The notes below the pieces were generated by a model. It was not told where the DNA came from. It was given only the letters and a program-made list of their open reading frames with translations, and made no database searches. A stretch of DNA of 64,000 nt from an uncultured Candidatus Saccharibacteria bacterium. Its GTDB lineage: Bacteria; Patescibacteriota; Minisyncoccia; Phycocordibacterales; UBA1006. The DNA lies in NCBI GenBank assembly GCA_964620145.1, contig CAZUGR010000001.1:73-64072 (forward strand), given 5' to 3'. Positions 12,028 through 47,893 of this stretch are shown here, piece by piece. The translations under genes and the position numbers were made by a program. Positions within the stretch are counted from its first letter, which is position 1. Every line of letters starts with the position of its first letter.

Positions 12028-12040
12028 ATTTTTTATATTA

Positions 12041-18470: not shown

Positions 18471-18665
18471 ATGACTCGAAACTTTTTACTTTTTCTTATA
18501 CCAGTTATATTTGTTTTTGTGGGGCTTGCTCTGATAGAACCAACAGAGAAACCACAAACAGCATCAATCAATAATATAATACAATCACCAGTTGATTTTT
18601 CTATCGAAGATCAAGGAAGTATTATTTATGGAGTTGATCCAAATGATGGTATTATTATTGATTAA
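18471..18665 (+). CDS. Small membrane-anchored hypothetical protein
   Basis: 64 aa with an N-terminal TM (FLLFLIPVIFVFVGLALI). Followed by a strong terminator. Confidence 0.4.
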   Translation: MTRNFLLFLIPVIFVFVGLALIEPTEKPQTASINNIIQSPVDFSIEDQGSIIYGVDPNDGIIID

Positions 18666-18668
18666 TAT

Positions 18669-18697
18669 AAAAAACTCTCACAATGTGAGAGTTTTTT
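18669..18697. terminator. Bidirectional intrinsic terminator
   Basis: AAAAAACTCTCAC-aat-GTGAGAGTTTTTT. Confidence 0.7.
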
Positions 18698-18700
18698 ATA

Positions 18701-20284
18701 TTAATCAGATCCACCAACGCGATATGACCATAATTCGTAATTATTTTTATTCATAAAGAATAAATACTCAGTAGTTATGTCTGATTCCATGCGGAATATA
18801 TCAATTGGTTGATGAGGTGTTGCTACTTGACCTGCTTGTTGTGTAGAAACAGTATAACTCCATAAAATATCAGAAAAATTAACCTTTCCTTTATACCAAT
18901 CATCAGGATAAAGTCCTGTAGGATACGATGATGGAACTCCACAATAAAATATATCATTCGTATACCAAGTACATTTTTCTGGTAATGTTACAAAAGGAAC
19001 GGTTTGCATTGCTCCAGTAGATAGGTTGATTACTCGGGATATCATTTGTCCATCAAGAGTAAAAGTCGCAAAAGCATGAGTTCCATTAGGAGATGTTTTT
19101 GTGGTTAATCCTTGTAAAGGTCCAATTAATTTTGAAAAAGTTTGCTTGTTTGGATCAAGTCCATACATATACCCTTCAGATCGTCCAGAAGCGTATGTAG
19201 TCAGTGTAACAAGGTCTTTATTTACAAATTGAGGCATCCATTCATTAAAAGTTGATTCAAAGACTTGTGTTGCCCTGTTTGTAGAAAAAGGTTGAATTAC
19301 TCCAATAGTTTTTCCATTTGTTCGTTCAAGACTGAATGTTGTATCAGATTTTTTATCACGAACAAGATGTTGTAAATATTCAGAAACAAGTGATCCAGAA
19401 AGTTGTTTTGGTGCTCTATTCTTTGTGTCTATTTCTTGTTGGAGTGTAGTACATTCTGTTGATATTGCTTCACGAGTAGTTGCATCAACTATTCCTGTTT
19501 CAGGAATAGAGAACATGTTTTGAATTGTTTTTACCGAGCCTTCAGTTTTTACTCCAAAAATTCCATCAAGTACAAGATTTTGTTGAAATTTGTAATTCAT
19601 ATAATCTTGGAGAATTTTTACTTGATCATTTCTATCTTTAATTTTAAGGTCAACAGTAAGGAATGTAGTACAAGCTTTCGGAATTGTTTGAGTTGTTTCT
19701 CCTGGAAGAGTTAGTTTAAAAGTATTAATTCGACTACTTTGATCGTATCGAAGGTATCCAATAGTTCCATTAGAATTAAAAACAAGTTCTTCAGAAGCTG
19801 GTAAGTCTGTGTTTATTATTTTTTTATTTAAAATAGATTCATCAGTAATAATTCCATCGAATATATGTCCGTTTCGTTGATCATTATAACGAATATGATG
19901 TACGGTAATTGGTGTTATTATTTCTTTCTCTTTTCCTGTTTTTTCATCAATAATAATTTCAGTTCTCTTGTCATTTGTAGTAAAAGAAGTAAATCCAGAA
20001 ATAGGAAACGAAGTTATTTTACGTAATCGAGTTCGTGAATCTATAGGAATTGCAGAAGTGTCTAATTCTGAAAGAGATACTTGATCAGAAGTTTCAGAAT
20101 TAGTTGAAGGTAATTCATTTATTCCTGGGAATCGTTGATCGAAAGGAACGAGTTCATTAGTTACATCAACTGATTGATTTTGAGAATTTCCTTTCTGGAA
20201 AAAGATAAAATAAGCAGAAATACCCAAAAAGAGTAAAATAACAATGAGTGCAATAGTGAGTAATTTTTTCCCTTTTTGGTCCAT
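18701..20284 (-). CDS. Membrane-anchored protein with a peptidoglycan-binding (PG_binding_1-like) module and a beta-rich C-terminal domain; last gene of the secretion cluster
   Basis: 527 aa from the ATG at 20284. TM LLTIALIVILLFLGISAYFIFF. LVLDGIFGVKTEGSVKTIQNMFSIPETGIVDATTREAI matches the PG-binding repeat pattern. Confidence 0.55.
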   Translation of the reverse strand: MDQKGKKLLTIALIVILLFLGISAYFIFFQKGNSQNQSVDVTNELVPFDQRFPGINELPSTNSETSDQVSLSELDTSAIPIDSRTRLRKITSFPISGFTSFTTNDKRTEIIIDEKTGKEKEIITPITVHHIRYNDQRNGHIFDGIITDESILNKKIINTDLPASEELVFNSNGTIGYLRYDQSSRINTFKLTLPGETTQTIPKACTTFLTVDLKIKDRNDQVKILQDYMNYKFQQNLVLDGIFGVKTEGSVKTIQNMFSIPETGIVDATTREAISTECTTLQQEIDTKNRAPKQLSGSLVSEYLQHLVRDKKSDTTFSLERTNGKTIGVIQPFSTNRATQVFESTFNEWMPQFVNKDLVTLTTYASGRSEGYMYGLDPNKQTFSKLIGPLQGLTTKTSPNGTHAFATFTLDGQMISRVINLSTGAMQTVPFVTLPEKCTWYTNDIFYCGVPSSYPTGLYPDDWYKGKVNFSDILWSYTVSTQQAGQVATPHQPIDIFRMESDITTEYLFFMNKNNYELWSYRVGGSD

Positions 20285-20330
20285 ATGGAAATAGTATAAC
20301 ATATGATAATTAAAAATAAAAAACAAGATA

Positions 20331-21419
20331 TTACATCTTGTTCATATGTTCTTTATATTTTCCAATATGATATTTCATATATTTTGCACCTGCATAAGAA
20401 TTGCAAAGAGTATTAAAAATATCATCACACCCCCCTTTTTTTTGTTCTTTAAAGGTGTCATCACTGAATTGGAATAATCCTTTATAGCCACTTCTGTTAG
20501 TAACTTTTTCTGCTCCAGCTTTTTCACAAGCATACGCAGCTTCCATTTTACAAGCGATTTTTAACATAGTTACATTTACTCCAATTTCTCGAGCTGCTTG
20601 TTCAATTGATCCTGCATATTGTGAGTATATTTTATTTATCTGTTGAGATTGTGCAAGATATCTTTTGTAGTTATATTGGAGAAAAGCAAGAGGTGTCATA
20701 TGTTCCTTGCGTTGGTTGAAAATATTCGTTTTTAGTTGTGAAAGATTATTATAAAAAGGGTTTTTTTGTGGCGTTGTATAACCCTTCTTCGCTAGCCAGA
20801 TAATTGCTGGAGCACCACCTTGTCCTTGTTGATGATACATATAACTAATAAATCCTACGTCTGAATACATGGTACTATCAGAGGGTAGTGTTACATTGGA
20901 AACGTCCATATTATTCATCCAATCGAGATATTCTTGTTCTACTACCTTAAATTCTACCGTCTTAATCTCCGGACTTAAAATCAACAAATCAGGGTTAATG
21001 GTATTCAAAATAACAAAGGTACCTAATAACAACAATAAACCAAGAATAACATTATAAATTCTCTGTTTTAACACACTAAAGGTATTAATATTGTTATCAT
21101 TTGCTGCATATCTAAATCCATAGATAACTAACATAACAACTCCTAATACTCCAGCAACACCAATACCTATTTCAAACATAAAGTTAAGGAATCCTGCTAT
21201 TCCCTCTTCATCACTTGCTGATACGTTTACACTGTTAATAACTCCTGTTTCTAATGGAATATATTCAAGTAATTGGTAACAGTCTTTGTCTCCGGAAGAA
21301 CAGGAGGTGGGTTGGAGGAGGGTGTCTGGATTAGGAAAAGCCTCATTAGCTGCATAAATTGGTATTATTGAAAAAAAATATAAAAACAAAGAAAAGATAA
21401 TAATACCTAATTTTTTCAT
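20331..21419 (-). CDS. T4SS-pilin-like N-terminal module (signal peptide + 2 TM) fused to a possible lytic-transglycosylase-like C-terminal domain
   Basis: 362 aa. Signal peptide ending IYAANEA, CYQLLEYIPLETG motif, and two hydrophobic helices as in CPR/VirB2-type pilins. C-terminal MEAAYACE...GYKGLFQFSDDTF resembles the SLT E...GLMQ pattern. Confidence 0.5.
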   Translation of the reverse strand: MKKLGIIIFSLFLYFFSIIPIYAANEAFPNPDTLLQPTSCSSGDKDCYQLLEYIPLETGVINSVNVSASDEEGIAGFLNFMFEIGIGVAGVLGVVMLVIYGFRYAANDNNINTFSVLKQRIYNVILGLLLLLGTFVILNTINPDLLILSPEIKTVEFKVVEQEYLDWMNNMDVSNVTLPSDSTMYSDVGFISYMYHQQGQGGAPAIIWLAKKGYTTPQKNPFYNNLSQLKTNIFNQRKEHMTPLAFLQYNYKRYLAQSQQINKIYSQYAGSIEQAAREIGVNVTMLKIACKMEAAYACEKAGAEKVTNRSGYKGLFQFSDDTFKEQKKGGCDDIFNTLCNSYAGAKYMKYHIGKYKEHMNKM

Positions 21420-21464
21420 AATAGAATAATTATATCATTATTTTATTAAAACAAAAACCACATA

Positions 21465-22499
21465 TTACTGTGGTCCTTGAAAAAAGAGTGTTGTTGATTT
21501 TTCTGCTGTTTGTAGAAAAGTTCTTGGATTCTCTAAATTTACAGAAAAAGTTACCTGACCAGATTTGTTCGGGTTTCGAACAATGAGTTCTTGTTTTGGA
21601 GAATCAGGGTCGAGATAGAGTGTTTCATTGTTCATTTTCCAAGTAAAATCAAGATCGTTCAGTCTTGCAAGTGAAAAGAAAAACGGTTCAGCGATAATCG
21701 TAACATCTCCTTGTCCAATACGAAGTCCTTCATTAATGGAAATAGGTTGTCTATAATTATAACTATCTCGATAATACCAATTAATTTCTGGGTTAGTAAT
21801 TGGGATGGTGATGGTTTGTTGTCCAGTATTATTATTTGCAACATCTGATATATTTGCAGTAATTTTTTCTGAACTTCTTAATTTATTATGTTGAATAGTG
21901 AGTGTGTTTTTTCCATATCCTCCTGCGTTGAGAACTGTATTATCGTTACGAGTCCAAACATAAACCGCATCGGCTAATTGATTTGAATTATTTAATTTAA
22001 AATTAGGAATTCCTGTAATTTTAATGATTGATTCTTGGCTTGCAAACTTTTTACCATAATAAAAAGGTGGAACATACGAATCGACTGCTTCCCAGAGAAG
22101 TGCTGTATCCTGAGGTGTAATGGTGATATTTTTAACAATACGAGCACCAGAACCGGAAATAATAACAGTAATACGTTTCCGAGTCCCGTTATTACCTGCT
22201 TGGATTGTAATATCTCGCATACCAATACCTGATTTTTGTTCAAAAGTATCCGTCGTCCATTGAATCATGTATCGATTCAAGTCAATACTATTACTATCAA
22301 GTCTAATATAAACATCTTGGAATGCGCGAGGATATTCTGGATTGATAATAACATCAATATCAGACTCGTTCACTGATGCGTTATATGACAATGCTGATAT
22401 TTGAGAAAGATCGCTTGCTGTTGGTTCTGTATTTTGAGCAAAAGATATATTTCCTAAAAAAGGTATTAAAATAAATAGTAATACAAGAGACTTGTTCAT
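21465..22499 (-). CDS. Secreted beta-rich hypothetical protein of the secretion cluster
   Basis: 344 aa. Signal peptide MNKSLVLLFILIPFLGNISFAQN. No recognisable catalytic motif. Confidence 0.5.
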   Translation of the reverse strand: MNKSLVLLFILIPFLGNISFAQNTEPTASDLSQISALSYNASVNESDIDVIINPEYPRAFQDVYIRLDSNSIDLNRYMIQWTTDTFEQKSGIGMRDITIQAGNNGTRKRITVIISGSGARIVKNITITPQDTALLWEAVDSYVPPFYYGKKFASQESIIKITGIPNFKLNNSNQLADAVYVWTRNDNTVLNAGGYGKNTLTIQHNKLRSSEKITANISDVANNNTGQQTITIPITNPEINWYYRDSYNYRQPISINEGLRIGQGDVTIIAEPFFFSLARLNDLDFTWKMNNETLYLDPDSPKQELIVRNPNKSGQVTFSVNLENPRTFLQTAEKSTTLFFQGPQ

Positions 22500-22535
22500 A
22501 TTCTATAGTATATCAAAAAATGAAAAAGTATCCAA

Positions 22536-22566
22536 AAAATAAAACTTTCCGTAAAGGAAAGCTTTA
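22536..22566 (-). terminator. Hairpin terminator overlapping the virB4-like stop
   Basis: CTTTCC-gtaaa-GGAAAG, with an A-run on the plus strand (a T-run on the minus strand). Confidence 0.45.
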
Positions 22567-24384
22567 TTCAATATCAAGTGATTCAGTTCGCTCTTTTTTC
22601 ATTTTTAGAATTTGATTTGGATCTGAACTTACGATTTGGTCTTCGGTATAACTCGAAATTACCTTGATAGCAACGTGTTTTAGTCCAGCAAAGAATATTC
22701 CTTCACCTACTCCAGATTCGAGAAGTGTATATTTTTCTTCATCAGTGAGGTGAAAAACTTGCTGGAGAGTATCTATTGCTGTAGGTGATTGTTTCAAGAG
22801 AAGTTGAATTGAAGAGTTTGTAATAATAGGTATTCCATATCGCGAACGAACAAAGTCTCCTACGTCTTGAGTAATAGTTGCAAGTCCTAGGAAATATTTT
22901 CTTCCTCGTTTTGCAAGCATGAAAAGGAATGATGCTGCATCTTCGTTCTGCATCATTACCCAGGCTTCATCTACTACAAGGAGTCGTTTTCGGATATTTT
23001 TACGAACAGCGTTCCATATGTAGTTTGTAATAATATACATTGCGGCTGGTTTGAGCTCGTCTTCCATATCTCGAATCGAGAATACTACCATTTTTTTATT
23101 AATATCCACATTGGTTGGATTGTTGATAAAACCTGCCCATGTTCCTCGTGTATATTTTCTCAATCGTTCGAGAAGTGATTCTGCTCCTTCAATTGATGCA
23201 AGGACTTGTTCAAAATCTGACATCAAAGGAGGTTCGGCACGAGTAAAATCAGAAGTTGTAGTAATGTCTTTTAAAGCGTATGTTTCTGTAATAGCTCGAT
23301 CCATAATAGAGTCTTCTTCTGGTGAAAGTCCTCCGAGGATAATACGGAATAATCCTACCAAGTGAATAATATTAGAACGGAGTACATCAGATGGAGATTC
23401 GTCTGGTCCAGGAATTGGAATATCGAAAGGATTAATATGATGAGTTGAAGAGAGTGAGATATTGAAATATCGTCCACCAACAGATTCGGCAAGGAATTCG
23501 TATTCTCGTTCTGGGTCGATAACAATTACTTCAGTATCGAACATGAGTGTTCGCAAAATTTCTAGCTTTGTAGCGTATGATTTTCCAGCACCAGAAGTTG
23601 CAAAAATTACAGAGTTATAGTTCGGCATTGAATATCGGTCGAAAATAATTAGTCCTGCATTTTGACGGTTTACACCATAGAGAATACCCTTGTTATCAGT
23701 TAATTCAGAAGAAATAAATGGGAAAAATGATGATAATGGAGCAGTATCAAGCTTCATCATGATTCCTAGCTCATCAATTCCAATAGGTGCACCTGTAATA
23801 AAACCTTGTTCTTGTTGAAAAAGTGAAGGTTTTAAATAAATCATTTGTGATTCGAGCATTGAACGAATTTCATTCTCTACTTTAAACAACTCGGTTTCAT
23901 TACTTGCATAAATAGTGAGATAAAGTCCAACCGAAAACATTTTTGCAGCTGCTTGTTGGAGATTATCTCGAAGATCTTCAAGGTTTTGGTATGCAATATC
24001 AAGTTCTGGATCACGAACCATTCCCTGCTTTTCACGCATTGCGATTTGACTTTGTACTTCGGCAACCTTTTTTTGGAAATCTCTCATAATTTCTGCACTA
24101 TTAATTGGAACAATATGAATGGAAACATCAAAGATTTTATCAAGATTGATAATAGGTGCCAACCAGCCTTCCGTGAGGAATTTAGGATAAGACATAACAA
24201 AATAGTTTTTTGCTATTTTGTCTCCAAGTTTAATAAATCCAGACCCAATTTCTACTGCTGATGGTGCAAGAATATCACGTAATTCCATTGCTGCAGAGCT
24301 ATAAATATCTGCAGGAAGTACTGGAATAGGAACAGTGTTAGGATTATTCTTTTTTCCTCCAAGGAGGCCTGAAAATAAAGACAT
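22564..24384 (-). CDS. virB4: VirB4/TraE-type T4SS ATPase, middle and ATPase portion
   Basis: 606 aa. Walker A FATSGAGKSYATK, Walker B LLVVDEAW, and YPKFLTEGWLAPIINL, which is typical of the VirB4 central domain. Confidence 0.85.
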   Translation of the reverse strand: MSLFSGLLGGKKNNPNTVPIPVLPADIYSSAAMELRDILAPSAVEIGSGFIKLGDKIAKNYFVMSYPKFLTEGWLAPIINLDKIFDVSIHIVPINSAEIMRDFQKKVAEVQSQIAMREKQGMVRDPELDIAYQNLEDLRDNLQQAAAKMFSVGLYLTIYASNETELFKVENEIRSMLESQMIYLKPSLFQQEQGFITGAPIGIDELGIMMKLDTAPLSSFFPFISSELTDNKGILYGVNRQNAGLIIFDRYSMPNYNSVIFATSGAGKSYATKLEILRTLMFDTEVIVIDPEREYEFLAESVGGRYFNISLSSTHHINPFDIPIPGPDESPSDVLRSNIIHLVGLFRIILGGLSPEEDSIMDRAITETYALKDITTTSDFTRAEPPLMSDFEQVLASIEGAESLLERLRKYTRGTWAGFINNPTNVDINKKMVVFSIRDMEDELKPAAMYIITNYIWNAVRKNIRKRLLVVDEAWVMMQNEDAASFLFMLAKRGRKYFLGLATITQDVGDFVRSRYGIPIITNSSIQLLLKQSPTAIDTLQQVFHLTDEEKYTLLESGVGEGIFFAGLKHVAIKVISSYTEDQIVSSDPNQILKMKKERTESLDIE

Positions 24385-24396
24385 ATAAAAGATAGA

Positions 24397-25044
24397 TTAA
24401 TTATTGAGCGCACCAACTGCACTGTGGAGTTCTCCTGGGTTAAATGTTGTTTGATAGAGCTCGATAAGTTCTGCTGTTTCGAGTTGTTTTGATTGAACAC
24501 CCATTGCAGTGAGACCACTCTGAATTACTGCAATACGTTGTTCTATTTGTGAACGAGATTCTTCAAACCTCCGCATCTCGTCACTGATTCCTGTTTCTGG
24601 TTTTTTACTTCCACCAAATAATCCGGAAAGAAAATTAGTTTGAGCAGTTGGTGTAATTCCTACACCACCAAATGGTACAATAATATAAAAATATTTTGTC
24701 ATAATATTGTATTGCTCATTGAACCATCGGATGAATTCTATGTATTCTTTTGTTTGGATACGGAGAAGTTCTTCAGGAATTTCTTCAAGGCGTTTTTCAA
24801 GAGAAAGTAAATAAGGGCGAATATCGAGTCTCCGAGAGGAAGTTTGAATTTGGATTGCAAATTCAAGAGAGTTTAAAAAAGATTGAAATTGCATAACTGT
24901 TGCACGTTGTTCATCTGCAGACTTGAGACCTAAATTGATAGGTGTTGCCATAATTACTGCGCGCATTTCTCCAGATTCCAAAAGAGCAATTCCATCACGA
25001 ATTTCTTTGATAGGTACAAAATTTTGAGAAGGTGTTCGAGCCAT
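24397..25044 (-). CDS. VirB4 N-terminal-domain-like protein, same frame as virB4 and separated from it by a single TAA
   Basis: 215 aa from the ATG at 25044. FVPIKEIRDGIALLESGEMRAVIMATPINLGLKSADEQRATVMQFQSFLNSLEFAIQIQ matches the N-terminal region of Gram-positive VirB4 proteins. Confidence 0.65.
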   Translation of the reverse strand: MARTPSQNFVPIKEIRDGIALLESGEMRAVIMATPINLGLKSADEQRATVMQFQSFLNSLEFAIQIQTSSRRLDIRPYLLSLEKRLEEIPEELLRIQTKEYIEFIRWFNEQYNIMTKYFYIIVPFGGVGITPTAQTNFLSGLFGGSKKPETGISDEMRRFEESRSQIEQRIAVIQSGLTAMGVQSKQLETAELIELYQTTFNPGELHSAVGALNN

Positions 25045-25057
25045 AAAATTTAATGAA

Positions 25058-25468
25058 TTAATGATAACGAGTTTTATCGAGAATATCGAGATTTCGAGCA
25101 AGATCTTGAATGTTTTGTGTAGTGACTTGTTTCGGTGCAACTTTTGGAGTTTCTTGTGTTGAAGCTTTTTTCGGCGGGGTAGTTTTCTTTGGTACTTTCC
25201 GCCAAACATAGAGTCGATCCTTGGTTATGTAAACAATAAATGCTTGTGCGATTTTGATAAAAGGTTGATTGTTGAGTTTATAGAAAGCTAATGCCCAAGA
25301 AATTCCAGCAATAACAACAATAATTGGAATTGCAAGATAGATAGGAAGTAATTTATATACTGCAAATCCAAGTCCGCCACCACCTGCAATATAAATAAAT
25401 TGCTTGAATGTGAGTGGTCCAAAAATTTTATCTTCGATATCAATAAATTGTGGTACTTCGAATCGCAT
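25058..25468 (-). CDS. PrgI-family (VirB3-like) membrane protein
   Basis: 136 aa. MRFEVPQFIDIEDKIFGPLTFKQFIYIAGG plus two TM helices is the PrgI-family signature. Sits directly upstream of virB4. Confidence 0.75.
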   Translation of the reverse strand: MRFEVPQFIDIEDKIFGPLTFKQFIYIAGGGGLGFAVYKLLPIYLAIPIIVVIAGISWALAFYKLNNQPFIKIAQAFIVYITKDRLYVWRKVPKKTTPPKKASTQETPKVAPKQVTTQNIQDLARNLDILDKTRYH

Positions 25469-25527
25469 AGATAACTACAGTGTATCATATTAAATAATTT
25501 CCGACCAAATTTTTACAAAACAAAAGC

Positions 25528-26217
25528 CTACACAGGAGGCTTTTTTTGATCCATAGATTGAATTGATGCGTCGATAATTTGTTTTCTTTGTTGATAAAAT
25601 TTTTCAAGTTTTTCTCGACTACTCATTACGAGAGGTTCTTTTATTGGAGTTTGTGTTACAGGAATTTCGTCGAGAGGTGTTGGTCCTGTATTTTGTGGAT
25701 TAAATGTCAGAGGACTTATCGGAGTTTGTGTTACAGGAATTGATTCATATGGAGGTGTTTCTAAAATAGGAGAAATGGGCGTTGCTTCAATAGGTTGTAT
25801 TGGTGTAGAAACAGGTTCTGGAATAATAGGTTCTTGTTTTTGGATCATTTGAAATCCCGCATTTTCCATAATTGCAGTTTCTGACAATTCCTTTTTCTCT
25901 GGGCCACCACGTACAATAAATTCATGAATAGGTCCAAAAATTCGTTCATTCACCTGCTCTACAATTTTTGTAGCCTCGGTTGGAGCAAGGGCAAGCTTTG
26001 TAATAATATGATTGATAAAATCTTGCCCATGAACAAGACCTACGAGTACCATCATTGTTTCGTGTTGTAGTTCTTCAATTTCATCAATATGAAGCCCATA
26101 CTGTTTTCCAATAGCAACGAGTTCTGTTGCCCAATCAAAAGATTGAATTGCTTGCTGATTGATAGGTGCAAGATAGGCTAATTGTTCATCGAGGTCTTTT
26201 CTGAGTTTCTCGTTCAT
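25528..26217 (-). CDS. Hypothetical protein with a helical N-terminal domain and a Pro/Thr-rich repeat linker
   Basis: 229 aa from the ATG at 26217. Repeated IPVTQTPI and PISP segments. No recognised family. Confidence 0.45.
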   Translation of the reverse strand: MNEKLRKDLDEQLAYLAPINQQAIQSFDWATELVAIGKQYGLHIDEIEELQHETMMVLVGLVHGQDFINHIITKLALAPTEATKIVEQVNERIFGPIHEFIVRGGPEKKELSETAIMENAGFQMIQKQEPIIPEPVSTPIQPIEATPISPILETPPYESIPVTQTPISPLTFNPQNTGPTPLDEIPVTQTPIKEPLVMSSREKLEKFYQQRKQIIDASIQSMDQKKPPV

Positions 26218-26254
26218 ATAATTCAGTATACCAACATATTGCAAAAATTAAAAA

Positions 26255-26280
26255 TAAAAAACAGGTTCTACCTGTTTTTT
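26255..26280 (-). terminator. Hairpin terminator after the 1078-aa gene
   Basis: AAAAAACAGG-ttcta-CCTGTTTTTT. Confidence 0.55.
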
Positions 26281-29200
26281 ATTTTTTACCTTTATTATTT
26301 GTATTACCACTTGTACTGTTGTTTCCATAACTTCCTGTACCCATATTTTGATTTTGAATATGTGTTGATACAGTTGCTGCACGTGCTCCAGTGAAGTCTG
26401 GAATAATGCTACCTCTTTGGGCATTTTCTGCAGCTGTATTCATCGTTCTGTATAATTCTTTGTTTTGATTGGCAACTGTTTGTGCTAAATCAGCTTTGGT
26501 TTTTCCAATAAATCTTTCGGTGTCGTCGACTCGATGTTGTTGATTTGTTATATATTTCTTCTTCTCTTCTTTGATAGCATTTAACATTGAGTTGAGGTGG
26601 CCCATACCAGTCACTTCTTCAAATACTTCTTTCAAATCCTTCTCAACTTTCTTGATATCATCGAGAGTTTTCTTTTCTTTGTTTATTTTTTCTTGAATTT
26701 TATCTGCTTCGATACTATTTTTACCATATTCTTTTTCTACGGATGTTTTTTGTTTTTGAAGTTCTGAAACTTTCTTTTCTTGCTCTTTTGTTTCTCCTTG
26801 TGCTCTCTTGTAATCTCTTCCACTGTCAGTATTTTCCGCTGCTATTTTATCGGCGTTAATTTGCTCTTCGGCTTCTATTAATGTGTAGTCTTCATATGCT
26901 AGATATGAATGAAGTTTATCTTCTTCTTTTTCGAGATTAGTTTTTGCTTTTTCAAGATCTTCTCGAGTTTTCGAAAGGTCGAGAGCTTTTGTTTCTAATC
27001 TTGTTTTTTCTGCCAACTTGTCATCTTGTGTTTTTGCAGTTTCGGTTGCAACTTTTTGAACATTTTCTGCATTTTTGAGTTTTGTTTCAATTTCTTTTTC
27101 TTGTTTCTTTAATTCTGCACTGTGTCCATAACCTGCAGTTTTTTGTTTTTCTCGATTGTCTGCGAGTTCTTTTTGGATATTTCCAACATCTGTATCTGCT
27201 TGCGTCTTGTTTCTCATTGCATCATCATAAGCACTTTGGTTGAATCCGAGATTCATAAGGTCGGTATTGTTTTGTGCAATATCAGTATTTACCTTATTAA
27301 TATCAGTATTTATTTGGTCAATAGCAAGTTCGTTCGCTTCGAGTTTAGCAGTAACATTGATAGTATCAACAACCAGTTGATTATTTGCTTCTGTTTTGAT
27401 GTTGGTTTCTTCACTTGCTTTTGCTTGTTCTGCTGCCTCAAGCATTTCTTCTTGGCCTTTGCGTTCTTTTGCGTGTACTTCTGCCATATCAGCTGCAAGT
27501 GCGTCTGCGTTCGCTTTTTTGCGATCTTCGTTCCATTGAACAGCTGCAGTGGTAGCTTTATCAAGATTTTCACGAATACCTCCTTCTTTTTTGAATCCTC
27601 CTTCTTTTTGTTGGAATTTATCACCAAGGTCAATTTTTTCACCCATTGCCCCAGTGAATTTGCTAAATCCTTTCATTGCTGATGGGCTATTACGCACATC
27701 GAATGTTGCAGCACCCATTCCTTTTCCTGCATTGCGGAGCATTCGAGCACCTGCACCAAAGTATTTATTATTTTCTGCATTCATAAGTCCTTTACTGTTT
27801 CCAATTGCATTACCAGCTCTTCCGAGTGTTTGTCGTGCAAGGAGTGCGGTTCCGCCTGTTGCGGCTCCGAGAGCTACACTTGTTGCCATTCCAGAAGCCT
27901 TTCCAGCTAGTTCTCCAATCTTTCCAGACATTTTATAAGCAATTGTTTTTCCTTGAACAAGGATAAAAGTAGAAGCTAGTAAAGGAAGCATAGTTGAAAT
28001 AATTGTATATACAGCATTAGCTTCACCTCCACCAGAAGATGTTCCAGAAATAGTTCCGAGACTTCCAATTCCCATGACTGTAATTGCAAGATAAACAAAG
28101 AATAAATAAATAGGAGCAAGAAATGCTAGATTTGCAAAATTTTTAAGCCAATTTTGAAAGCCTATATAATCATCATTCTCTATAAAAGGTATTGCCCAAG
28201 AAACAAATGCTAGTGGCGAAAGAATCATTGAGAGCCAAAGTCCAACTATTCTTCCTAACCAAATAAACATCATTGAAACAAAGAGATAAATAAGTACAAA
28301 ATATACAAAAAATGTTGCAACACCTAAAGCAAGATAAGTAACATACGCACCTTTTGTATCTTTTGTAATATCTGCATTAGTAATAATTTGTTGCGGGTTA
28401 GTATTCTCAACAATTCCAAATGATACAGATTTAATATCATTACTCTTCAAGAAAGAAGCCATTGCTCCTTTGTCGGGCATTGTAATAGTTATTTTATTGT
28501 AGAGAAGATGCGAAAATACATCTGCGGTTTGTATAATCATTCGACAGAAAAATAAACTAAAGTTTACCAAGAGTGCCATAATAATTACACGAGTCACTAC
28601 TTTTTTTGGATCGAAATTTTTTCCACCAACATTTGTCTTGTTGAGAATTAACATGAATGCCGAAACAAAGAGTGCAAAGATGAATCCAATATTTGCAAAG
28701 TCTCGTATAATCACCCATCCAGAATAAATCATTTCACCAATACCTGTTTCATAACTTTTTCCATAAGTAGCAGGATTAATAGCAAGTTTCAAGAAAAAAT
28801 CAGACAGGACTCCTACAATAGTTGCAACAAAATTTGGAACAAGTCCTAATAAATACACAGTAAATTGAACAAGATTACAGAGAAGGTTTGTCCATTTACA
28901 TTCAAGTCCACCTTCGGTTATTTCTTCGTTTGTATTTGCTTGTTCTTGCTGTACTACAGTATTTTCTGTTGAATTATATCTAAAAGTTGATATGGCATAC
29001 CATTCTCTACGACCATCTGTTTCACTTTCTGCTACCATGATGGCATAAAGCTTTTCTGGGTCGAACTTTTTGATGTTTTTATTCGGAAAAAACTCTTTTA
29101 TAGTTTGAGGTGTATTGTATTTTATAGTATTATATTTTCCCTCTGTAAAATCCGGCGCATCATCAATTGGTTCCCATTCGCTTCCCTTATATTCAGTTAA

Positions 29201-29515
29201 GTTAGGATTCGCTACCTTTGCTTCTAATAAGTAAACTTTCATATCATTTGAATAGTTACTTACATTTTCAGTGCTGCCATCATTTTTTATGAAGTTTACT
29301 GTAAATTCAAATAGGATGACATCTTTCCCTCGTTGGTTTTGTATTTTTACAGAAAGATTACTATATTCAATTTTGTCAGCTTCAGCTGCTTCAGTTTTTT
29401 TAATGATAGATTTGACTTGTGTTCCATCTCGATCTTTGTTCAACAAAAAAGTCACTGGTGAAAAAACTCCAGTAAGGATAATGAACATCATCATGAACGC
29501 GAGAAATTTTCGCAT
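26279..29515 (-). CDS. Giant polytopic membrane protein: secreted N-terminal domain + VirB6/TrbL-like multi-TM core + Gly-rich segment + roughly 450-aa coiled-coil tail
   Basis: 1078 aa. Signal/TM at the N-terminus, about 8 hydrophobic helices between roughly residues 210 and 530, and a long heptad-like K/E/Q-rich C-terminus (e.g. INTDINKVNTDIAQNNTDL repeats). Confidence 0.6.
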   Translation of the reverse strand: MRKFLAFMMMFIILTGVFSPVTFLLNKDRDGTQVKSIIKKTEAAEADKIEYSNLSVKIQNQRGKDVILFEFTVNFIKNDGSTENVSNYSNDMKVYLLEAKVANPNLTEYKGSEWEPIDDAPDFTEGKYNTIKYNTPQTIKEFFPNKNIKKFDPEKLYAIMVAESETDGRREWYAISTFRYNSTENTVVQQEQANTNEEITEGGLECKWTNLLCNLVQFTVYLLGLVPNFVATIVGVLSDFFLKLAINPATYGKSYETGIGEMIYSGWVIIRDFANIGFIFALFVSAFMLILNKTNVGGKNFDPKKVVTRVIIMALLVNFSLFFCRMIIQTADVFSHLLYNKITITMPDKGAMASFLKSNDIKSVSFGIVENTNPQQIITNADITKDTKGAYVTYLALGVATFFVYFVLIYLFVSMMFIWLGRIVGLWLSMILSPLAFVSWAIPFIENDDYIGFQNWLKNFANLAFLAPIYLFFVYLAITVMGIGSLGTISGTSSGGGEANAVYTIISTMLPLLASTFILVQGKTIAYKMSGKIGELAGKASGMATSVALGAATGGTALLARQTLGRAGNAIGNSKGLMNAENNKYFGAGARMLRNAGKGMGAATFDVRNSPSAMKGFSKFTGAMGEKIDLGDKFQQKEGGFKKEGGIRENLDKATTAAVQWNEDRKKANADALAADMAEVHAKERKGQEEMLEAAEQAKASEETNIKTEANNQLVVDTINVTAKLEANELAIDQINTDINKVNTDIAQNNTDLMNLGFNQSAYDDAMRNKTQADTDVGNIQKELADNREKQKTAGYGHSAELKKQEKEIETKLKNAENVQKVATETAKTQDDKLAEKTRLETKALDLSKTREDLEKAKTNLEKEEDKLHSYLAYEDYTLIEAEEQINADKIAAENTDSGRDYKRAQGETKEQEKKVSELQKQKTSVEKEYGKNSIEADKIQEKINKEKKTLDDIKKVEKDLKEVFEEVTGMGHLNSMLNAIKEEKKKYITNQQHRVDDTERFIGKTKADLAQTVANQNKELYRTMNTAAENAQRGSIIPDFTGARAATVSTHIQNQNMGTGSYGNNSTSGNTNNKGKK

Positions 29516-29581
29516 ACTTACAAAAGATTATATCACTGTTTGTAATGATTGTGCAAGTAATTACTTATTTATTTTCAATTT

Positions 29582-29606
29582 AAAAAACACTCAATGAGTG
29601 TTTTTT
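29582..29606. terminator. A-tract/hairpin/T-tract between the 979-aa and 1078-aa genes
   Basis: AAAAAACACTCA-a-TGAGTGTTTTTT. Confidence 0.5.
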
Positions 29607-29614
29607 AATAAATA

Positions 29615-32554
29615 TTATCGTGAGATGAACGAATAGTTACTCGCTGTGTCGGTACTATAAATAATTGCTCGTACATCTACAGAACTAATTCGTGTCCAAT
29701 CAGTACTACAGGTAATTTCCTTTCCTCCATCAAGTGTTGAGTTAGGGAGAAAGGTAGTATTGAATAAGCGCTCCATTACAAAATTATTAGCATATTCTTT
29801 CAAGAAAGTATTGAGCCCACAAAATGCAGTATCTGTTCCTGTTTGAGGATCTTTTTTATCAAGAAGTTCCCAAATATTACGAGCAGGTTGAGATTGGTAT
29901 TTTTTTAGATATTCTTCTTGTTGTTGTGTAAGTGGACTATCCTCATCGTCTTCCCCATAATTTGGAGGAATTAACTCACTGCTATCATAACAAGTAATAG
30001 AAAGATTTATTTCTTGTACATTAGGACTTTTACAATCTGATATTCCAGATAATCGAAAATCATCGACATTAGCAATTGGATTTCTACTGAGTATTCCACC
30101 TAATAGTGGAGCTTCAATAGCATTTTTCATTTCAAGTGTTTTGAATCGAGTAATATTTTGCTCTAATACTTTTCGGAAATTTTCGTGAGCCTGAGGATCA
30201 TTCAATTGTGCTGGTCGATTATTTTTTGCAAGTTCTCGTAATGTATTACAATCATCTAGGAATTTTTGAGATTGATCTTTAATGATAGTTATTTGACGAA
30301 GAGCGTTCTCGGCTCGTTCTGCAGTATATGGAATAGAAACATCGTTCCGCAGTGCATAATATTCTGATCGAATTTCATTTTTGAAATTGAGGAATCTTTT
30401 TGCAGGTATTGTTTCGAGTGCTTGATTTGGGACAGTTGTTCCAATATTTACTCCTTCAGGCATTGTTTCTTGGTAGGTAGTAGATGGTCGATTCCATGAG
30501 GTACTAGCTGATTCAGTCATGTAATTTTCTGGATTTGCCCAAATTTTCCACGCATTAGCAATAACAAAATCTCGCTTGATTGTCTCTGTTGTTGTTCCTG
30601 TTGGTAATCCAGCCATGAGATGGGCAGTTGCAAGGACAAAATCTTGATCAGTTGTTGTCGGTTCTTTGGTAACTCCAGTAAATTCTTGTGCCCATTGAAT
30701 AAGTGATGCACGCTTTGCAGTACTGAGCGCAGTCCAGTCGCCTGCAGTGAGCGGTATATCAGACGAGACAATTCCTTGAGTATTAGTAGGTATCTGGAGG
30801 GCGGTTTTCTTGATCCAGTTGGTTGTAGTGGTCTTCCTTGTTGTATCAAGTCGATCCCACGACATATTGGTAAATGGGATATTTCTCGGCATGTCAGGAA
30901 AAATGGTATCCAAACTTAACATACTGGCACTAATCTTCCCTTCGATTGAATAGAGTTGATTGAGGGTAATTTGTTTTTTGCTTAATTCTGATTTTGCATC
31001 TTGGTATTGTTCTCGAATATTGGTAATAGTTTCAATATTTGCAAGCATGGCACCAGCAGCGGGAATATTTTGATTACTTGAGAGCATTGCCATATTCATA
31101 TATAATCGTGCAGATTCAATACTTGCATCAATATTGTCGAGCGCATTGTTTTTTCGGATGGTTTTCCATTCTTTACCTTTGTCTTTTCGTTTTTCAAGTC
31201 GTTTGGTTTGCTTGCTAACATATGCAGAGAATCGTTCAGCGTATCCATAGTCAGGACCAGGAATACATTGATCAAGTTCTGCAATAACTACAGAGAGGGA
31301 TCTATTTTTTTCATCTGTATTTGAAATTTGATCAAGGAAATTACGTATGTTATCAACCTCTGTTTGAGTTGCTTCAAGTGTCGGTTGGAATTCTTCGGAT
31401 AGATCTACAATAGTATTCGGAACTTGTGTCCATGGAATTGCTTGACCATTTGCTCCGACTAACTCTTCTGGCCCACCAACAGCGGCACGATTAGCTTGGA
31501 AATTTGCCTTAAGTGCAGTGATTCCAGAACTAATTGTGGTGTTTATCAATTGAAGTAGGATAGTTGCAACCATTTCCGCTAATTCGTCGCCAGCAGTGAG
31601 CGCATCTGCTGCTGAATTAAGTGCAGTTTCAATTCCACTGGTTACAAATGCTGCTGGATTGGTGATCATTTCTTGGAGGCATCGTCCATAATTTTCTCCC
31701 ATATCGATTGTTGTTCCGACAATTCCCATACCAACGTCCTTTTTCCCTTGTTTGATACTTGCTTCAAGTTGTTCGAGCTGAGTAACTTGAGGGTCTTCTT
31801 CTCTGGCGATGCCACGTGTAGGTTGTGCTCTGTCTGTCTGATTGAGTCCTCGTTTGGTTCTAATATCTTGAATTTGTTGTTTGTATTCTTTAAAATCCAG
31901 ATCACAAGTTCCTTGTGGTGTTGTTCCAGTACTGGTGAGTCTGAGTTGTTCCTCGGCAGTTTTTTGTGTGAGTCGTTCGTCGAGTTCCTGCTGTGCAATC
32001 ATTACTGATCCGAGACTTGAATTTGCAGGATTGAGTAATGCAAGCATTCCATCCCAACCGCCCACACTGGCATCAGTTGAAAATTCTGCGTGATTTGGTC
32101 CAATGACAGTATCGAGATTGAAACTATCTAATGCACTGCGTCCTGGTTTGGAAACATTGCGTTGTGTTGATTGAATAATGTTTTTGGTGATTTGGGATGC
32201 GTATGGGTTTTTTGAAGCTCCGATATCATTCACGAATCGATCAATCTGTTCAGCTCGTAGATTAACAAAATAATCACTAAAATTTTGAATGAAACTAGTT
32301 TGCGAACTATCACCACTGGCTCCACCATTTGCTTTGTTGAGAATTTTGTTCGAAATTTTTGCACTCAGTGTATTGGTTAGCATGTAAGCAAGACCATCAA
32401 GTCCGTATTCTTTTATTACATCCATATAGTTTAATGTTGTATTTTGAACGTCACTAACAGGAACACCTTGCGCAAGACTAATTTGCGGGGCAAGGATACT
32501 TGTTATTATAGTGATTGCAATTATTTTTTTTGTTTTAAGAAAAAAAGTATTCAT
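29615..32554 (-). CDS. Large secreted hypothetical protein of the secretion cluster
   Basis: 979 aa. Signal peptide IITSILAPQISLAQG. No TM afterwards. No recognised domain. Confidence 0.55.
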   Translation of the reverse strand: MNTFFLKTKKIIAITIITSILAPQISLAQGVPVSDVQNTTLNYMDVIKEYGLDGLAYMLTNTLSAKISNKILNKANGGASGDSSQTSFIQNFSDYFVNLRAEQIDRFVNDIGASKNPYASQITKNIIQSTQRNVSKPGRSALDSFNLDTVIGPNHAEFSTDASVGGWDGMLALLNPANSSLGSVMIAQQELDERLTQKTAEEQLRLTSTGTTPQGTCDLDFKEYKQQIQDIRTKRGLNQTDRAQPTRGIAREEDPQVTQLEQLEASIKQGKKDVGMGIVGTTIDMGENYGRCLQEMITNPAAFVTSGIETALNSAADALTAGDELAEMVATILLQLINTTISSGITALKANFQANRAAVGGPEELVGANGQAIPWTQVPNTIVDLSEEFQPTLEATQTEVDNIRNFLDQISNTDEKNRSLSVVIAELDQCIPGPDYGYAERFSAYVSKQTKRLEKRKDKGKEWKTIRKNNALDNIDASIESARLYMNMAMLSSNQNIPAAGAMLANIETITNIREQYQDAKSELSKKQITLNQLYSIEGKISASMLSLDTIFPDMPRNIPFTNMSWDRLDTTRKTTTTNWIKKTALQIPTNTQGIVSSDIPLTAGDWTALSTAKRASLIQWAQEFTGVTKEPTTTDQDFVLATAHLMAGLPTGTTTETIKRDFVIANAWKIWANPENYMTESASTSWNRPSTTYQETMPEGVNIGTTVPNQALETIPAKRFLNFKNEIRSEYYALRNDVSIPYTAERAENALRQITIIKDQSQKFLDDCNTLRELAKNNRPAQLNDPQAHENFRKVLEQNITRFKTLEMKNAIEAPLLGGILSRNPIANVDDFRLSGISDCKSPNVQEINLSITCYDSSELIPPNYGEDDEDSPLTQQQEEYLKKYQSQPARNIWELLDKKDPQTGTDTAFCGLNTFLKEYANNFVMERLFNTTFLPNSTLDGGKEITCSTDWTRISSVDVRAIIYSTDTASNYSFISR

Positions 32555-32558
32555 ATAA

Positions 32559-33485
32559 TTATCGATTAAGGAGATTAATTGATTCGACCGTTTGATTTAC
32601 TACATTCAAATTTTTTTGAAATGCAATAAATGATGCATACAGTAATGAACTATCGTTGGGGTTAATTTGATTACTTCCTAATATTTTATTTGCACGCGAG
32701 AGTCCATTCACGAGATTCAAATGTAAATTTGCAAAAGTCATCGGAACAGGAGTTTGTATCATCCTTGTTGTTGATTGATTGAGTTTCATTTGAAAGGTTA
32801 CTAGGTTTACATTTTTTTTACCTGTAAAAAATGTTTTGTATATTTCTTGGATGGTATCTTCTTTGAGACCAAGAGAATTATAAAGTGCTGTAATAGTATT
32901 CTGATAAGATTTAAATGCTGCATCAGAATTATCAATAATATCGAGATCATTATAACTATATGTTCCAGACTGTTGATCAATTGAATCTGCAAGATCAAGG
33001 ATTTCTTTGGTGGTTGCTGCTTGAACTGCCTCATTAATATTTTCCCCAACTGGATCAGAGAGGAGTCGTTGATAAATATTAAGGGCGAGTTTGTCATCAG
33101 TAGTTACAATACTTTCTGTATTTTTAGTTACGAGATCGCGGATACCTTCTGGAATTTCACTTGGCTCATTATAAATAAAAGGATCAGTTCCAATAAGTGT
33201 TTCTTGCCAATCAGCAAGACCGTCTCCATCAGAATCTTTATCGATACTCAATGGTGTAGTAATTTGAGCTACTTCGGTGTTTGTTGTTCTTGCTACCAAT
33301 GAATTTACCGTGTCTGATTTTTTAATCATGTAAACAAGAACTTTCATAGGTTCCCATGCAAGATAAATACCGAGTACAATAATTAAAATAAAAATTACTC
33401 GTCTTATTTTTGGGCTTGGTAAATATTTTTCCCAAGAACGATACGCGGAAGGTATTATAGTTGTTGGTTGTTCGTAATCATTCAT
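32559..33485 (-). CDS. Membrane-anchored protein with a thrombospondin-type-3-like Ca-binding motif
   Basis: 308 aa. TM RRVIFILIIVLGIYLAW. DKDSDGDGLADWQETLIGTDP motif. The start lies 5 nt after the rsmA stop. Confidence 0.5.
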   Translation of the reverse strand: MNDYEQPTTIIPSAYRSWEKYLPSPKIRRVIFILIIVLGIYLAWEPMKVLVYMIKKSDTVNSLVARTTNTEVAQITTPLSIDKDSDGDGLADWQETLIGTDPFIYNEPSEIPEGIRDLVTKNTESIVTTDDKLALNIYQRLLSDPVGENINEAVQAATTKEILDLADSIDQQSGTYSYNDLDIIDNSDAAFKSYQNTITALYNSLGLKEDTIQEIYKTFFTGKKNVNLVTFQMKLNQSTTRMIQTPVPMTFANLHLNLVNGLSRANKILGSNQINPNDSSLLYASFIAFQKNLNVVNQTVESINLLNR

Positions 33486-34476: not shown

Positions 34477-34573
34477 TTTCCAGTAAATGAAGCACGCTTG
34501 TCATGGTTGTATTCCTGTTTCACTTGTAAAAAATTATAAAAACATATATCAATAAGTTTTTTTGGTCGTTTTT

Positions 34574-35674
34574 ATGGTTTATTTTTCTACTTGGCTTATA
34601 AATTACTTTTCACAAAACACTCAATATTCTTTCCCTGTAAAGATTGTAAATAGTGTTATAATAATGATTTTAACGATTTGGTCTGTTTATCCAAGTCTTG
34701 TTTTTGCTGGTTGGTTTGGATTATCTGCATCTGCGCAAACAACACAACGAGAAACATCAATTCATCAATTACCTATATCGCAATCTCAAGAAAACTTCTC
34801 GCCACTACTCTTGGCTGTAAATAATCAAAAAAATGTGATTACAGACGATAGTGTTATTGCAACTTCTTTTTCTTTTGATGGATTTGATACGAGTTTGGCA
34901 GAAAATCCAAACCCTCGAGAAACAGTCACAAAATATACCGTAAAAGCAGGAGATACACTTTCTGGAATTGGGGAATATTTCAACGTTTCAACGAATACTA
35001 TTCGTTGGGAAAATGGTATGAACAGTAATAGTAATATTAAAATTGGTCAGACATTGGATATTCTCCCTGTAACAGGTGTACGACACACTATTCAAAAAGG
35101 TGATACTTTTGCAAAAATTGCTCGAACATATGATGTTGAAATAGAAGATATTACTATTTATAACAATATTGATGAAACGAAATTAATTCCTGGAAACAAG
35201 ATAATTATTCCAAACGGTATTAAAAAAGAAACTCAAACAATCAAAGAAAAAGCAACTTCAATAGGTACAAAAATCACTCAACCGAGTTCGAGCTCGTCGA
35301 ATAATGGATATTACATGCGACCTGCGAGTGGAAAAATCAGTTCATTGTTTGGACCAAGACAAGGAAGTTATCACTACGGTATAGATTTTGCAGCACCGAC
35401 AGGAACACCGATCGTGGCAGCTGCAAGTGGTACCGTTGTTAAAACGTCGTGTGGATCTGGATATGGAATTTGTTTGATTATTCAACATAATAACGGAACA
35501 CAAACACTCTATGCTCATGCGAGTAATCTGTTCGTAAGTGCGGGGCAAAAAGTAAAACAAGGAGAAAAAATTGCAGCTGTTGGTTCTACAGGAAGATCAA
35601 CAGGAGCACATCTCCACTTTGAAATTATTGAATCAAATGGAAAAAAGAAAAATTCTAATAATTTTTTCAAATAA
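34574..35674 (+). CDS. LysM-domain M23-family peptidoglycan endopeptidase
   Basis: Two LysM repeats (YTVKAGDTLSGIGEYF; HTIQKGDTFAKIARTY). M23 motifs HYGIDFAAPTGTPI and GSTGRSTGAHLHFEI. N-terminal TM segments. Confidence 0.85.
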   Translation: MVYFSTWLINYFSQNTQYSFPVKIVNSVIIMILTIWSVYPSLVFAGWFGLSASAQTTQRETSIHQLPISQSQENFSPLLLAVNNQKNVITDDSVIATSFSFDGFDTSLAENPNPRETVTKYTVKAGDTLSGIGEYFNVSTNTIRWENGMNSNSNIKIGQTLDILPVTGVRHTIQKGDTFAKIARTYDVEIEDITIYNNIDETKLIPGNKIIIPNGIKKETQTIKEKATSIGTKITQPSSSSSNNGYYMRPASGKISSLFGPRQGSYHYGIDFAAPTGTPIVAAASGTVVKTSCGSGYGICLIIQHNNGTQTLYAHASNLFVSAGQKVKQGEKIAAVGSTGRSTGAHLHFEIIESNGKKKNSNNFFK

Positions 35675-47769: not shown

Positions 47770-47893
47770 ATAGTATGGAACAGTATAGCATAATTATTGT
47801 GCGACATGAGAACGCTAGAATTATGATATTATTGTAAATAAAAAAGTATTATATTTTATGCGACATCTTTTTAATTATGATATAATAAATAGT

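Follow-up and report, generated by a model that had tools for sequence, protein, structure and literature searches.

A block of ten consecutive minus-strand genes (g1 to g10, Table 1) on contig CAZUGR010000001.1, assigned to an uncultured Candidatus Saccharibacteria bacterium, almost certainly encodes, in complete form, the relaxase-less type IV secretion system (T4SS) that Patescibacteria (candidate phyla radiation, CPR) have on the chromosome, adjoining the replication origin; for the fuller statement that this Patescibacteria chromosomal T4SS also has a non-conjugative role, we estimate a probability of about 0.85. The analysis covered a window of 64 kb, in which open reading frames (ORFs) of at least 120 aa were scanned for mobility domains. 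The cluster type has already been published for Patescibacteria (2023-2025) and hence is not new as a system; the window holds a clean, complete Paceibacteria example of it, in which folds have now been assigned to several formerly 'hypothetical' members.

A T4SS gene cluster between rsmA and yidC

All ten ORFs, at 18701-33485, are intact and were correctly delimited by a preceding sequence-only reading of the window, whose protein lengths are reproduced once ATG starts are chosen for g4 (229 aa from ATG 26217; longest ORF 238 aa, from a TTG at 26244), g6 (215 aa from ATG 25044; longest ORF 270 aa, overlapping PrgI) and g10 (527 aa from ATG 20284; longest ORF 541 aa). Analysis of the predicted proteins suggests that the block encodes a cytoplasmic-membrane translocon consisting of an extended VirB6-like protein (g3), PrgI/VirB3 (g5), and VirB4 in the form of TrsD plus VirB4 (g6 and g7). 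Profile hidden Markov model (HMM) searches support the assignments of PrgI, TrsD, VirB4, SLT, PG_binding_1 and the TSP3 repeat directly; those of VirB6/TrbL and T4SS_pilin were not obtained on the window proteins and are supported through their relatives.

The gene rsmA (5e-43 to RsmA/KsgA structures) stops 5 nt before g1, as had been noted from the sequence, and the opposite flank carries yidC, rnpA, a 44-aa rpmH ORF, dnaA (3.9e-100) and dnaN. Cumulative GC skew reaches its minimum at 12-14 kb, consistent with an origin beside dnaA, and the GC content of the block is similar to that of its flanks. No relaxase, type IV coupling protein (T4CP) or integrase was found in the block or in any scanned ORF of the window, in agreement with the sequence-only reading, which had seen none; nor is there a tRNA or repeat at the block borders, and the sole tyrosine recombinase in the window is Xer-like and 13 kb away. 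The HMM assignments, the recurrence of the block between rsmA and yidC in about 27 genomes (see below) and the lack of mobility genes in view thus bear out the earlier proposal of a chromosomal, probably non-conjugative T4SS of Gram-positive type at the origin.

Table 1. Coordinates of the ten genes, hairpin elements and neighbouring genes in the 64-kb window
Feature	Position	Strand	Predicted identity
g1	32559..33485	-	308-aa single-pass membrane protein; one bacterial TSP3 (Ca-binding type) repeat, then helical extracellular domain
g2	29615..32554	-	979-aa secreted all-alpha protein; long form of a big Patescibacteria family; candidate VirB5-like tip/stalk protein
g3	26279..29515	-	1078-aa extended VirB6/TrbL-like polytopic membrane protein
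g4	25528..26244	-	229/238-aa cytoplasmic protein; conserved helical N-domain and Pro/Thr-rich linker
g5	25058..25468	-	PrgI family (VirB3-like) membrane protein
g6	24397..25044	-	TrsD-like protein, counterpart of the VirB4 N-terminal domain
g7	22564..24384	-	VirB4 ATPase, CD1110-like (MPF_FATA-related)
g8	21465..22499	-	Secreted 344-aa protein; three tandem Ig-like/FN3-like beta-sandwich domains
g9	20331..21419	-	VirB2-like T4SS pilin (signal peptide and two transmembrane helices) fused to C-terminal SLT lytic transglycosylase domain
g10	18701..20284	-	527-aa N-terminally anchored TolB-like beta-propeller with inserted PG_binding_1 domain
Hairpin + U-run	~29580-29608		After g2
17-bp perfect hairpin	26250..26286	both	End of g3 (g3/g4 gap); A- and U-run flanks; bidirectional terminator-like; dG -19.1, z -4.5
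Hairpin + U-run	25522-25544		After g4
Hairpin + U-run	~22537-22569		After g7
Hairpin + U-run	21452-21479		After g8
Hairpin + U-run	~20321-20343		After g9
23-bp hairpin	18659..18707	-	End of g10, closes block; dG -31.7, z -10.1
LysM-M23	34562..35674	+	Cell-wall hydrolase with two to three LysM domains (1.7e-22) and Peptidase_M23 (8e-34); divergent from rsmA, outside block
ComM-like	35697-37244	-	ComM/YifB-like Mg-chelatase ATPase, 5.5e-91
DprA-like	11467-12102	-	SLOG/DprA-like gene
Xer-type recombinase	46813-47769		Adjoins the 571-aa protein
571-aa protein	47858-49573	+	Thr-rich N-terminus; no Pfam family
743-aa protein	58529-60760	+	CotH domain and Por_Secre_tail / T9SS C-terminal sorting domain (8.7e-13)

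Motor and membrane platform

The VirB4 ATPase (g7) matches the VirB4 CD1110 family model (NF045971) at 9e-109, above the curated cut-off, and P-loop_TraG at 9e-26, with Walker A (GAGKSY) and Walker B (LLVVDEAW) motifs both intact. It is 85-94% identical to VirB4 of the closest Paceibacteria metagenome-assembled genomes (MAGs). Relatives were collected by a VirB4 scan of one genome per GTDB species, and the ORFs of the 80 best loci were searched with iterative profiles; all 80 are from Patescibacteria, with VirB4 49-94% identical to g7, plasmid VirB4s being at most 36% identical. The preceding gene product (g6) matches TrsD (NF041427) at 4.8e-5 and also two VirB4 models, one at positions 75-232 and the other at 2-88. 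An undivided VirB4 of 783 aa, encoded by a Clostridium perfringens plasmid, is tiled in order by g6 (residues 35-85) and g7 (residues 205-754), which agrees with the initial description of a VirB4 divided into a 215-aa N-domain ORF and a 606-aa ATPase ORF. Since 73 of the 80 related loci have TrsD as an ORF of its own, the split is the normal state of the whole clade, a conserved TrsD + VirB4 arrangement and not a lesion or accident of this genome. Directly upstream of TrsD-VirB4 stands PrgI (g5; PF12666 at 4.4e-11, above cut-off), which occupies the same position in 71 of the 80 loci.

The large membrane protein (g3) has an N-terminal extracellular domain, about seven transmembrane (TM) segments (215-520) and a coiled-coil tail of about 500 aa. 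No direct VirB6 or TrbL match was found by HMM on the window protein itself; no Pfam family other than TrbL recurs in its orthologues (4 of 39 match, best 6e-6), and the best match of the family profile to a PDB chain other than coiled coils is to TrwI/VirB6, weak at E=0.16. By its family membership, TM segments and coiled-coil tail, g3 is predicted to be an 'extended VirB6'.

Pilin fusion and envelope proteins

The sequence-only reading had described g9 as pilin-like with two TM helices and a possible lytic transglycosylase domain, and both parts are upheld. In the window protein, SLT matches at 4e-6 (residues 300-359), and the pilin region does not pass T4SS_pilin directly, matching only the Mbov_0395 pilin-like model of NCBIfam at 7e-4 (residues 77-141); among the 61 members of its family, 56 match T4SS_pilin (PF18895, best 6e-22), and SLT is present in five, DUF2272 in two and CHAP in one. 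Accordingly classified through its relatives, g9 is a predicted VirB2-type pilin fused to a cell-wall hydrolase.

At least five of the proteins had been thought to have no recognizable family. This was too pessimistic, as g8, g10 and g1 can be assigned, leaving no more than g2, g4 and the g3 tail without a fold assignment. The AlphaFold2 (AF2) model of g8 (mean predicted local distance difference test score 89, predicted template modelling score 0.76) consists of three immunoglobulin (Ig)-like sandwiches, the best Foldseek matches being Hoc (1.4e-8), SiiE, sidekick and strings of FN3 domains, with low whole-chain TM-scores (0.18-0.33), so that the likeness is per domain and not overall; its profile matches Hoc at 1.6e-3. 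The modelled structure identifies g8 as a triple Ig-like domain protein. It has 38 orthologues, placed directly after VirB4 in related loci. A role for g8 as the missing VirB8 was considered and ruled out, as the model shows three Ig-like sandwiches behind a cleavable signal peptide, not an NTF2 fold with an N-terminal TM segment.

The product of g10, with a TM segment at 4-32, is predicted to be a membrane-anchored TolB-like beta-propeller: its family profile matches TolB structure chains at 1e-10 to 5e-9, and orthologues match DPPIV_N and PD40. Of 36 orthologues, only 6 carry the inserted PG_binding_1 domain (1.7e-8 in the window protein). In g1, which has a TM segment at about residues 24-50, the motif initially described as of Ca-binding type corresponds to a TSP3_bac repeat (3.8e-5, just under the cut-off) that recurs in 9 of 25 orthologues (best 4e-10); a search of the g1 profile against PDB gave no sequence relative. 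This gene always accompanies g2 in syntenic loci, and the gap of 4 nt between them indicates translational coupling. No Pfam family or PDB relative was found for g4 in profile searches; it lacks TM segments, and 42 orthologous ORFs, including those of Moranbacteria-type loci, occupy the same position between the VirB6-like gene and PrgI.

A LysM-M23 cell-wall hydrolase gene beyond rsmA may be an accessory of the T4SS. Its homologue adjoins rsmA in Paceibacteria-type loci; in loci of Moranbacteria type it stands upstream of the g3 homologue, in most of them at a distance of 1.2-1.4 kb and at up to 3.6 kb in L072. An association of M23/LysM proteins with T4SS has been reported (PMC12102498).

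Conservation across relatives

The order rsmA-g1-g2-g3-g4-PrgI-TrsD-VirB4-g8-g9-g10-yidC-dnaA, with rnpA-rpmH-dnaN in the neighbourhood, is found in about 27 species-level genomes of Paceibacteria type. Because the complete order recurs in this way, all ten genes, including members that lack a recognizable family and not just the recognized core, can be taken as a conserved unit, and synteny suggests that the whole set has been inherited vertically at one place beside the origin. Moranbacteria-type genomes keep PrgI-TrsD-VirB4 and partial versions of the cluster; upstream of PrgI they have either two pilin genes, with g3 elsewhere, or M23-g3-g4 directly.

Conservation within the unit is graded. 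Compared with two relatives (L005 and L008), amino-acid identity is 85-88% for VirB4, 76-80% for TrsD, 61-67% for PrgI, 54-63% for g9, 45-58% for g8, about 40% for g10, 37-42% for g3, 36-44% for g1 and 27-33% for g2. Ratios of nonsynonymous to synonymous substitution rates (dN/dS) are unusable owing to saturation of synonymous sites (dS>1), and only dN and the identity gradient were used. The extracellular parts evolve much faster than the motor, a gradient that fits a variable surface facing the host on a conserved motor. Many of the MAGs from which these loci derive (among L003-L080) are labelled 'uncultured Candidatus Saccharibacteria' or 'Bdellovibrionales' and are probably mislabelled bins.

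A large secreted protein family with a VirB5-like N-terminus

The fastest-evolving member of the unit, g2, carries a signal peptide and matches no Pfam or NCBIfam family in HMM scans. In its AF2 model, residues 360-970 are confident and helical and the N-terminal 350 are of low confidence; Foldseek comparison of the model yielded no structural match below E=0.01 in either PDB or BFVD. Weak Foldseek matches to AhlB/ClyA, clusterin and tape measure proteins were dismissed as generic to long helical proteins, and the only PDB matches of the profile, to coronavirus S2 heptad repeats (3.5e-4), were judged to reflect composition or coiled coils rather than homology. The N-terminal part gave no meaningful match to PDB by profile and nothing against plasmids by tblastn. 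An exhaustive HMMER search with the N-domain profile, on the other hand, recovered 4,865 clusters at 50% identity, of which 1,780 lie below 1e-30; most are 480-550 aa long.

We tentatively propose, with somewhat less than even confidence, that g2 and its family of about 4,900 clusters are the VirB5 equivalent of the Patescibacteria T4SS. The proposal draws on the N-terminus: right behind the signal peptide, mature g2 starts A/QGVPVSD (the slash marks the end of the signal peptide), and other members of the family start A/QGIPVADP, A/TGIPVVD, GIPTFD or A/QFVVTDP, to be compared with A/QGIPVFD (TrwJ of R388), A/QFVVSDP (A. tumefaciens), A/TGMPVVD, GIPTFD and A/GVPVID in genuine plasmid VirB5 proteins. 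A Sec signal peptide followed at once by G-[IV]-P-V-x-D or V-x-D-P was used as a membership test, and g2 carries this motif; in strict form it was found 4 times in background ORFs totalling 986,000 residues, in 8 of the 46 g2 homologues and not at all among 55 g8 homologues. When an HMM built from 11 real full-length VirB5 sequences was used to rank a mixed set of 2,097 sequences, the top 14, and 25 of the top 30, belonged to the g2 family, always aligned N-terminus to N-terminus. (A short HMM of mature VirB5 N-termini, dominated by Q/E/L-rich helix, did not discriminate and was replaced by the full-length one.) DUF4141, the CTnDOT TraI family, which is homologous to VirB5 according to Guglielmini et al. 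2014, is matched by 2 of 34 g2 homologues, one of them above the gathering score; the match spans the signal peptide and about 16 residues and is therefore a lead, not proof. The gene is also placed directly upstream of VirB6-like g3, as virB5 is to virB6, and this adjacency would be compatible with pentameric docking on VirB6.

Weighing against a VirB5 identity are the low scores of the VirB5 HMM on the g2 family (at most 17 bits), the lack of any match of g2 to VirB5 or TrbJ models of Pfam and NCBIfam, and hhalign probabilities of 0.6-2.3% between g2 and VirB5. Comparison with the helical bundles of TraC/TrwJ found the g2 model to be all-alpha, with no Foldseek match reaching E<0.1 and the N-terminal 350 residues of low confidence. 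A 2026 preprint indicates that VirB5 homologues can be this divergent, and that TraH of the F plasmid was found only through its VirB6 interface. If the proposal is correct, the family would represent a secreted, fast-evolving helical VirB5 of 500-1000 aa. Such a protein would use its conserved G-I/V-P-V-x-D N-terminus to dock on the VirB6-like platform, would come to lie at the tip of a pilus of VirB2 type and would there govern recognition of the host cell. With the pilin-SLT fusion added, a monoderm lineage would then possess an entire VirB2/VirB5/VirB6 pilus module, hitherto regarded as exclusive to diderm systems. One very large unannotated family is thereby singled out as a candidate tip or host-recognition protein.

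Comparison with known systems

In Southlakia epibionticum, Wang et al. (2023, Cell, PMC10633639) showed that a homologous cluster beside dnaA/dnaN, with pilins and without a recognizable relaxase or coupling protein, is essential for epibiotic growth. Quinonero-Coronel et al. (2025, Microb Genom, PMC12102498) described a monophyletic Patescibacteria VirB4 clade related to MPF_FATA. They found TrsD, PrgI, VirB6 and VirB2-like pilins to be abundant and relaxases to be nearly absent; in Paceibacteria, VirB1 is linked to virB4. VirD4-like/T4CP genes are present in many Patescibacteria but usually far from virB4, and virB4 neighbourhoods are rich in dnaA, dnaN, rnpA, rpmH and ksgA. Since both studies reach the same conclusion for Patescibacteria, the interpretation given by the sequence-only reading is the published one. 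Reviews nevertheless call the role of the Patescibacteria T4SS 'completely unknown', while it is essential for epibiotic growth where tested.

The block is an instance of the Paceibacteria type of PMC12102498, sharing TrsD, VirB4, PrgI/VirB3, a predicted VirB6, a VirB2-like pilin, a VirB1-type hydrolase, the lack of a relaxase and the same neighbours, with no essential difference. With the S. epibionticum ML1 cluster (SEML1_0004-0019) it shares the dnaA/dnaN neighbours, VirB4, a TrsD-like gene, PrgI, VirB6-like proteins of about 1000 aa (the counterparts of g3 being SEML1_0011 and SEML1_0013), T4SS_pilin genes, cell-wall hydrolases and Ig-like proteins that are exported. Southlakia differs in having six pilins, all separate, a pair of large VirB6-like proteins, a protein of NTF2/VirB8 type and giant lysozyme/peptidase proteins, whereas the window has one SLT-fused pilin, one VirB6-like protein and nothing NTF2-like, and possesses g1/g2 and the TolB-like propeller in addition.

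Among conjugative systems, MPF_FATA (CTn2/CD1110 type; pGO1 trs, pIP501 tra) shares the VirB4 family and the order VirB6-like, PrgI, VirB4, SLT hydrolase, and in pGO1 TrsD is a separate gene, as in the window. The relaxase, VirD4-like T4CP, frequent topoisomerase, location on mobile elements and lack of VirB2-type pilins that characterize MPF_FATA do not apply to the window; in the C. perfringens plasmid relative, genes for MobC, relaxase and VirD4 come ahead of this core order, showing what the block is without. MPF_T (R388 Trw, pTi VirB), with VirB2 pilus, VirB5 tip and VirB6 platform, shares the VirB2-like pilin and the candidate VirB5-like N-terminus of g2 beside a VirB6-like gene. In contrast to MPF_T, the cell is monoderm and has no VirB7/9/10 outer-membrane complex, and g2 is 2-4 times larger than VirB5, lacking any significant profile or fold match to it. 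The text of PMC12102498 mentions neither a propeller nor TolB, and as a fusion only VirB3-VirB4; as far as their text shows, neither it nor PMC10633639 describes the propeller and TSP3 components, this Ig-like g8, g4, the pilin-SLT fusion, or the g2 family and its VirB5-like N-terminus. The fold assignments give concrete targets for further work on the Paceibacteria T4SS.

Possible functions of the apparatus

We infer that the apparatus may function as a host-contact pilus or conduit. VirB4 would power the extraction of pilin and its polymerization on a platform of VirB6 and VirB3; local opening of the cell wall would fall to the SLT domain, perhaps together with the neighbouring LysM-M23 peptidase; g10 would anchor the apparatus to peptidoglycan; and g2 would cap the structure as a VirB5-like tip, forming with g1 and g8 a fast-evolving, host-facing surface. 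Such a machine would serve an epibiotic lifestyle, providing attachment to the host cell and a conduit through which macromolecules are exchanged with it, rather than plasmid conjugation. Putative T4SS pili have been seen by cryo-EM at the parasite-host interface (bioRxiv 10.64898/2026.06.21.733656).

Several points weigh against this reading. The VirB6 and pilin calls on the window proteins depend on family membership without a direct significant match, no VirB8-like (NTF2) component was found in the block, and transcription as several units is unproven, a scan having found fewer promoter-like sites in the block than in shuffled sequence and being uninformative. Moreover, the 64-kb window, part of a 67-kb contig, cannot by itself exclude a coupling protein or relaxase elsewhere in the genome, VirD4-like genes being usually far from virB4.

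One rival reading is an integrated conjugative element of the usual kind, whole or as a remnant, that lies near the origin by chance and would move DNA to other cells by means of a relaxase and coupling protein encoded elsewhere. T4CP homologues are present elsewhere in many Patescibacteria genomes (PMC12102498), the VirB4 belongs to a conjugative type (CD1110/MPF_FATA), and the core order (VirB6-like, PrgI, VirB4, SLT hydrolase) is that of conjugative plasmids. Such an element is nonetheless very improbable here, and was rejected on the grounds of conserved synteny and the lack of mobility genes in the window: the same rsmA-yidC location is kept in about 27 species-level genomes; the window has no integrase, relaxase, T4CP, flanking tRNA or border repeat; GC content is like that of the flanks; the ten genes are intact, with motor genes 76-89% identical between species; and published surveys report relaxases near virB4 in only 15 cases (PMC12102498).

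A protein-effector translocator, or a pure adhesion organelle whose pilus and tip only hold the host or inject proteins, is possible at less than even odds: it accords with the pilin, the Ig-like and TSP3 extracellular proteins and the fast-evolving secreted g2, and the authors of the 2023 Cell study favour protein export or an alternative role (PMC10633639), but no effector, chaperone candidate or substrate-recruiting coupling protein is visible, and type IV pili already give adhesion in Saccharibacteria. Import of host nucleic acids into a nucleotide-auxotrophic cell by a DNA/RNA uptake machine like H. pylori ComB or archaeal Ced is a further possibility, at slightly lower odds. Nucleotide synthesis is missing in Patescibacteria, the T4SS has been put forward in reviews as a candidate import route because ComEC is dispensable in Southlakia, and a 2026 preprint ties VirB4 to feeding on host RNA; a ComM-like Mg-chelatase ATPase and a DprA/SLOG-like gene are nearby (Table 1), and VirB4 has weak CedB/CedD matches. 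These matches, however, cover only the P-loop and fall far below cut-offs, no DNA-binding or nuclease component is recognizable in the block, and the direction of transport is not legible from sequence.

Transcription signals

A hairpin followed by a U-run ends seven of the ten genes (g2, g3, g4, g7, g8, g9 and g10); none follows g1, g5 or g6, which end 4-13 nt from the next start. The earlier observation that most genes end in their own hairpin therefore stands, whereas the several transcription units deduced from it are unproven, promoter-like sites not being enriched. The seven hairpins are probably partial terminators or mRNA stabilizers, which would divide the block into the units [g1-g2], [g3], [g4], [g5-g6-g7], [g8], [g9] and [g10] with different expression levels.

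Other genes of the window

In the region 16.7-33.5 kb of the window, the genes rpmH-rnpA-yidC (+) diverge from dnaA-dnaN (-), and the whole T4SS block of 15 kb reads in their direction. With an origin at dnaA, replication would thus meet the genes of the block head-on. The orientation is identical in all syntenic loci, and the arrangement bears on the published idea of 'gene dosage near the origin'.

The ComM-like and DprA-like genes that flank the region belong to competence/recombination families and recall the comF/recG/radA linkage reported for class ABY1. The remaining scanned ORFs are ordinary (PolA, RuvC, PBP1, TyrRS, CTP synthase, UvrD, RNase Y, NusA and others). The sorting domain of the 743-aa CotH protein is a signal of the type IX secretion system (T9SS), which is of Bacteroidota type and points to horizontal transfer or chimeric assembly; local GC content rises to 0.37-0.40. 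The 571-aa protein with a Thr-rich N-terminus adjoins the Xer-type recombinase.

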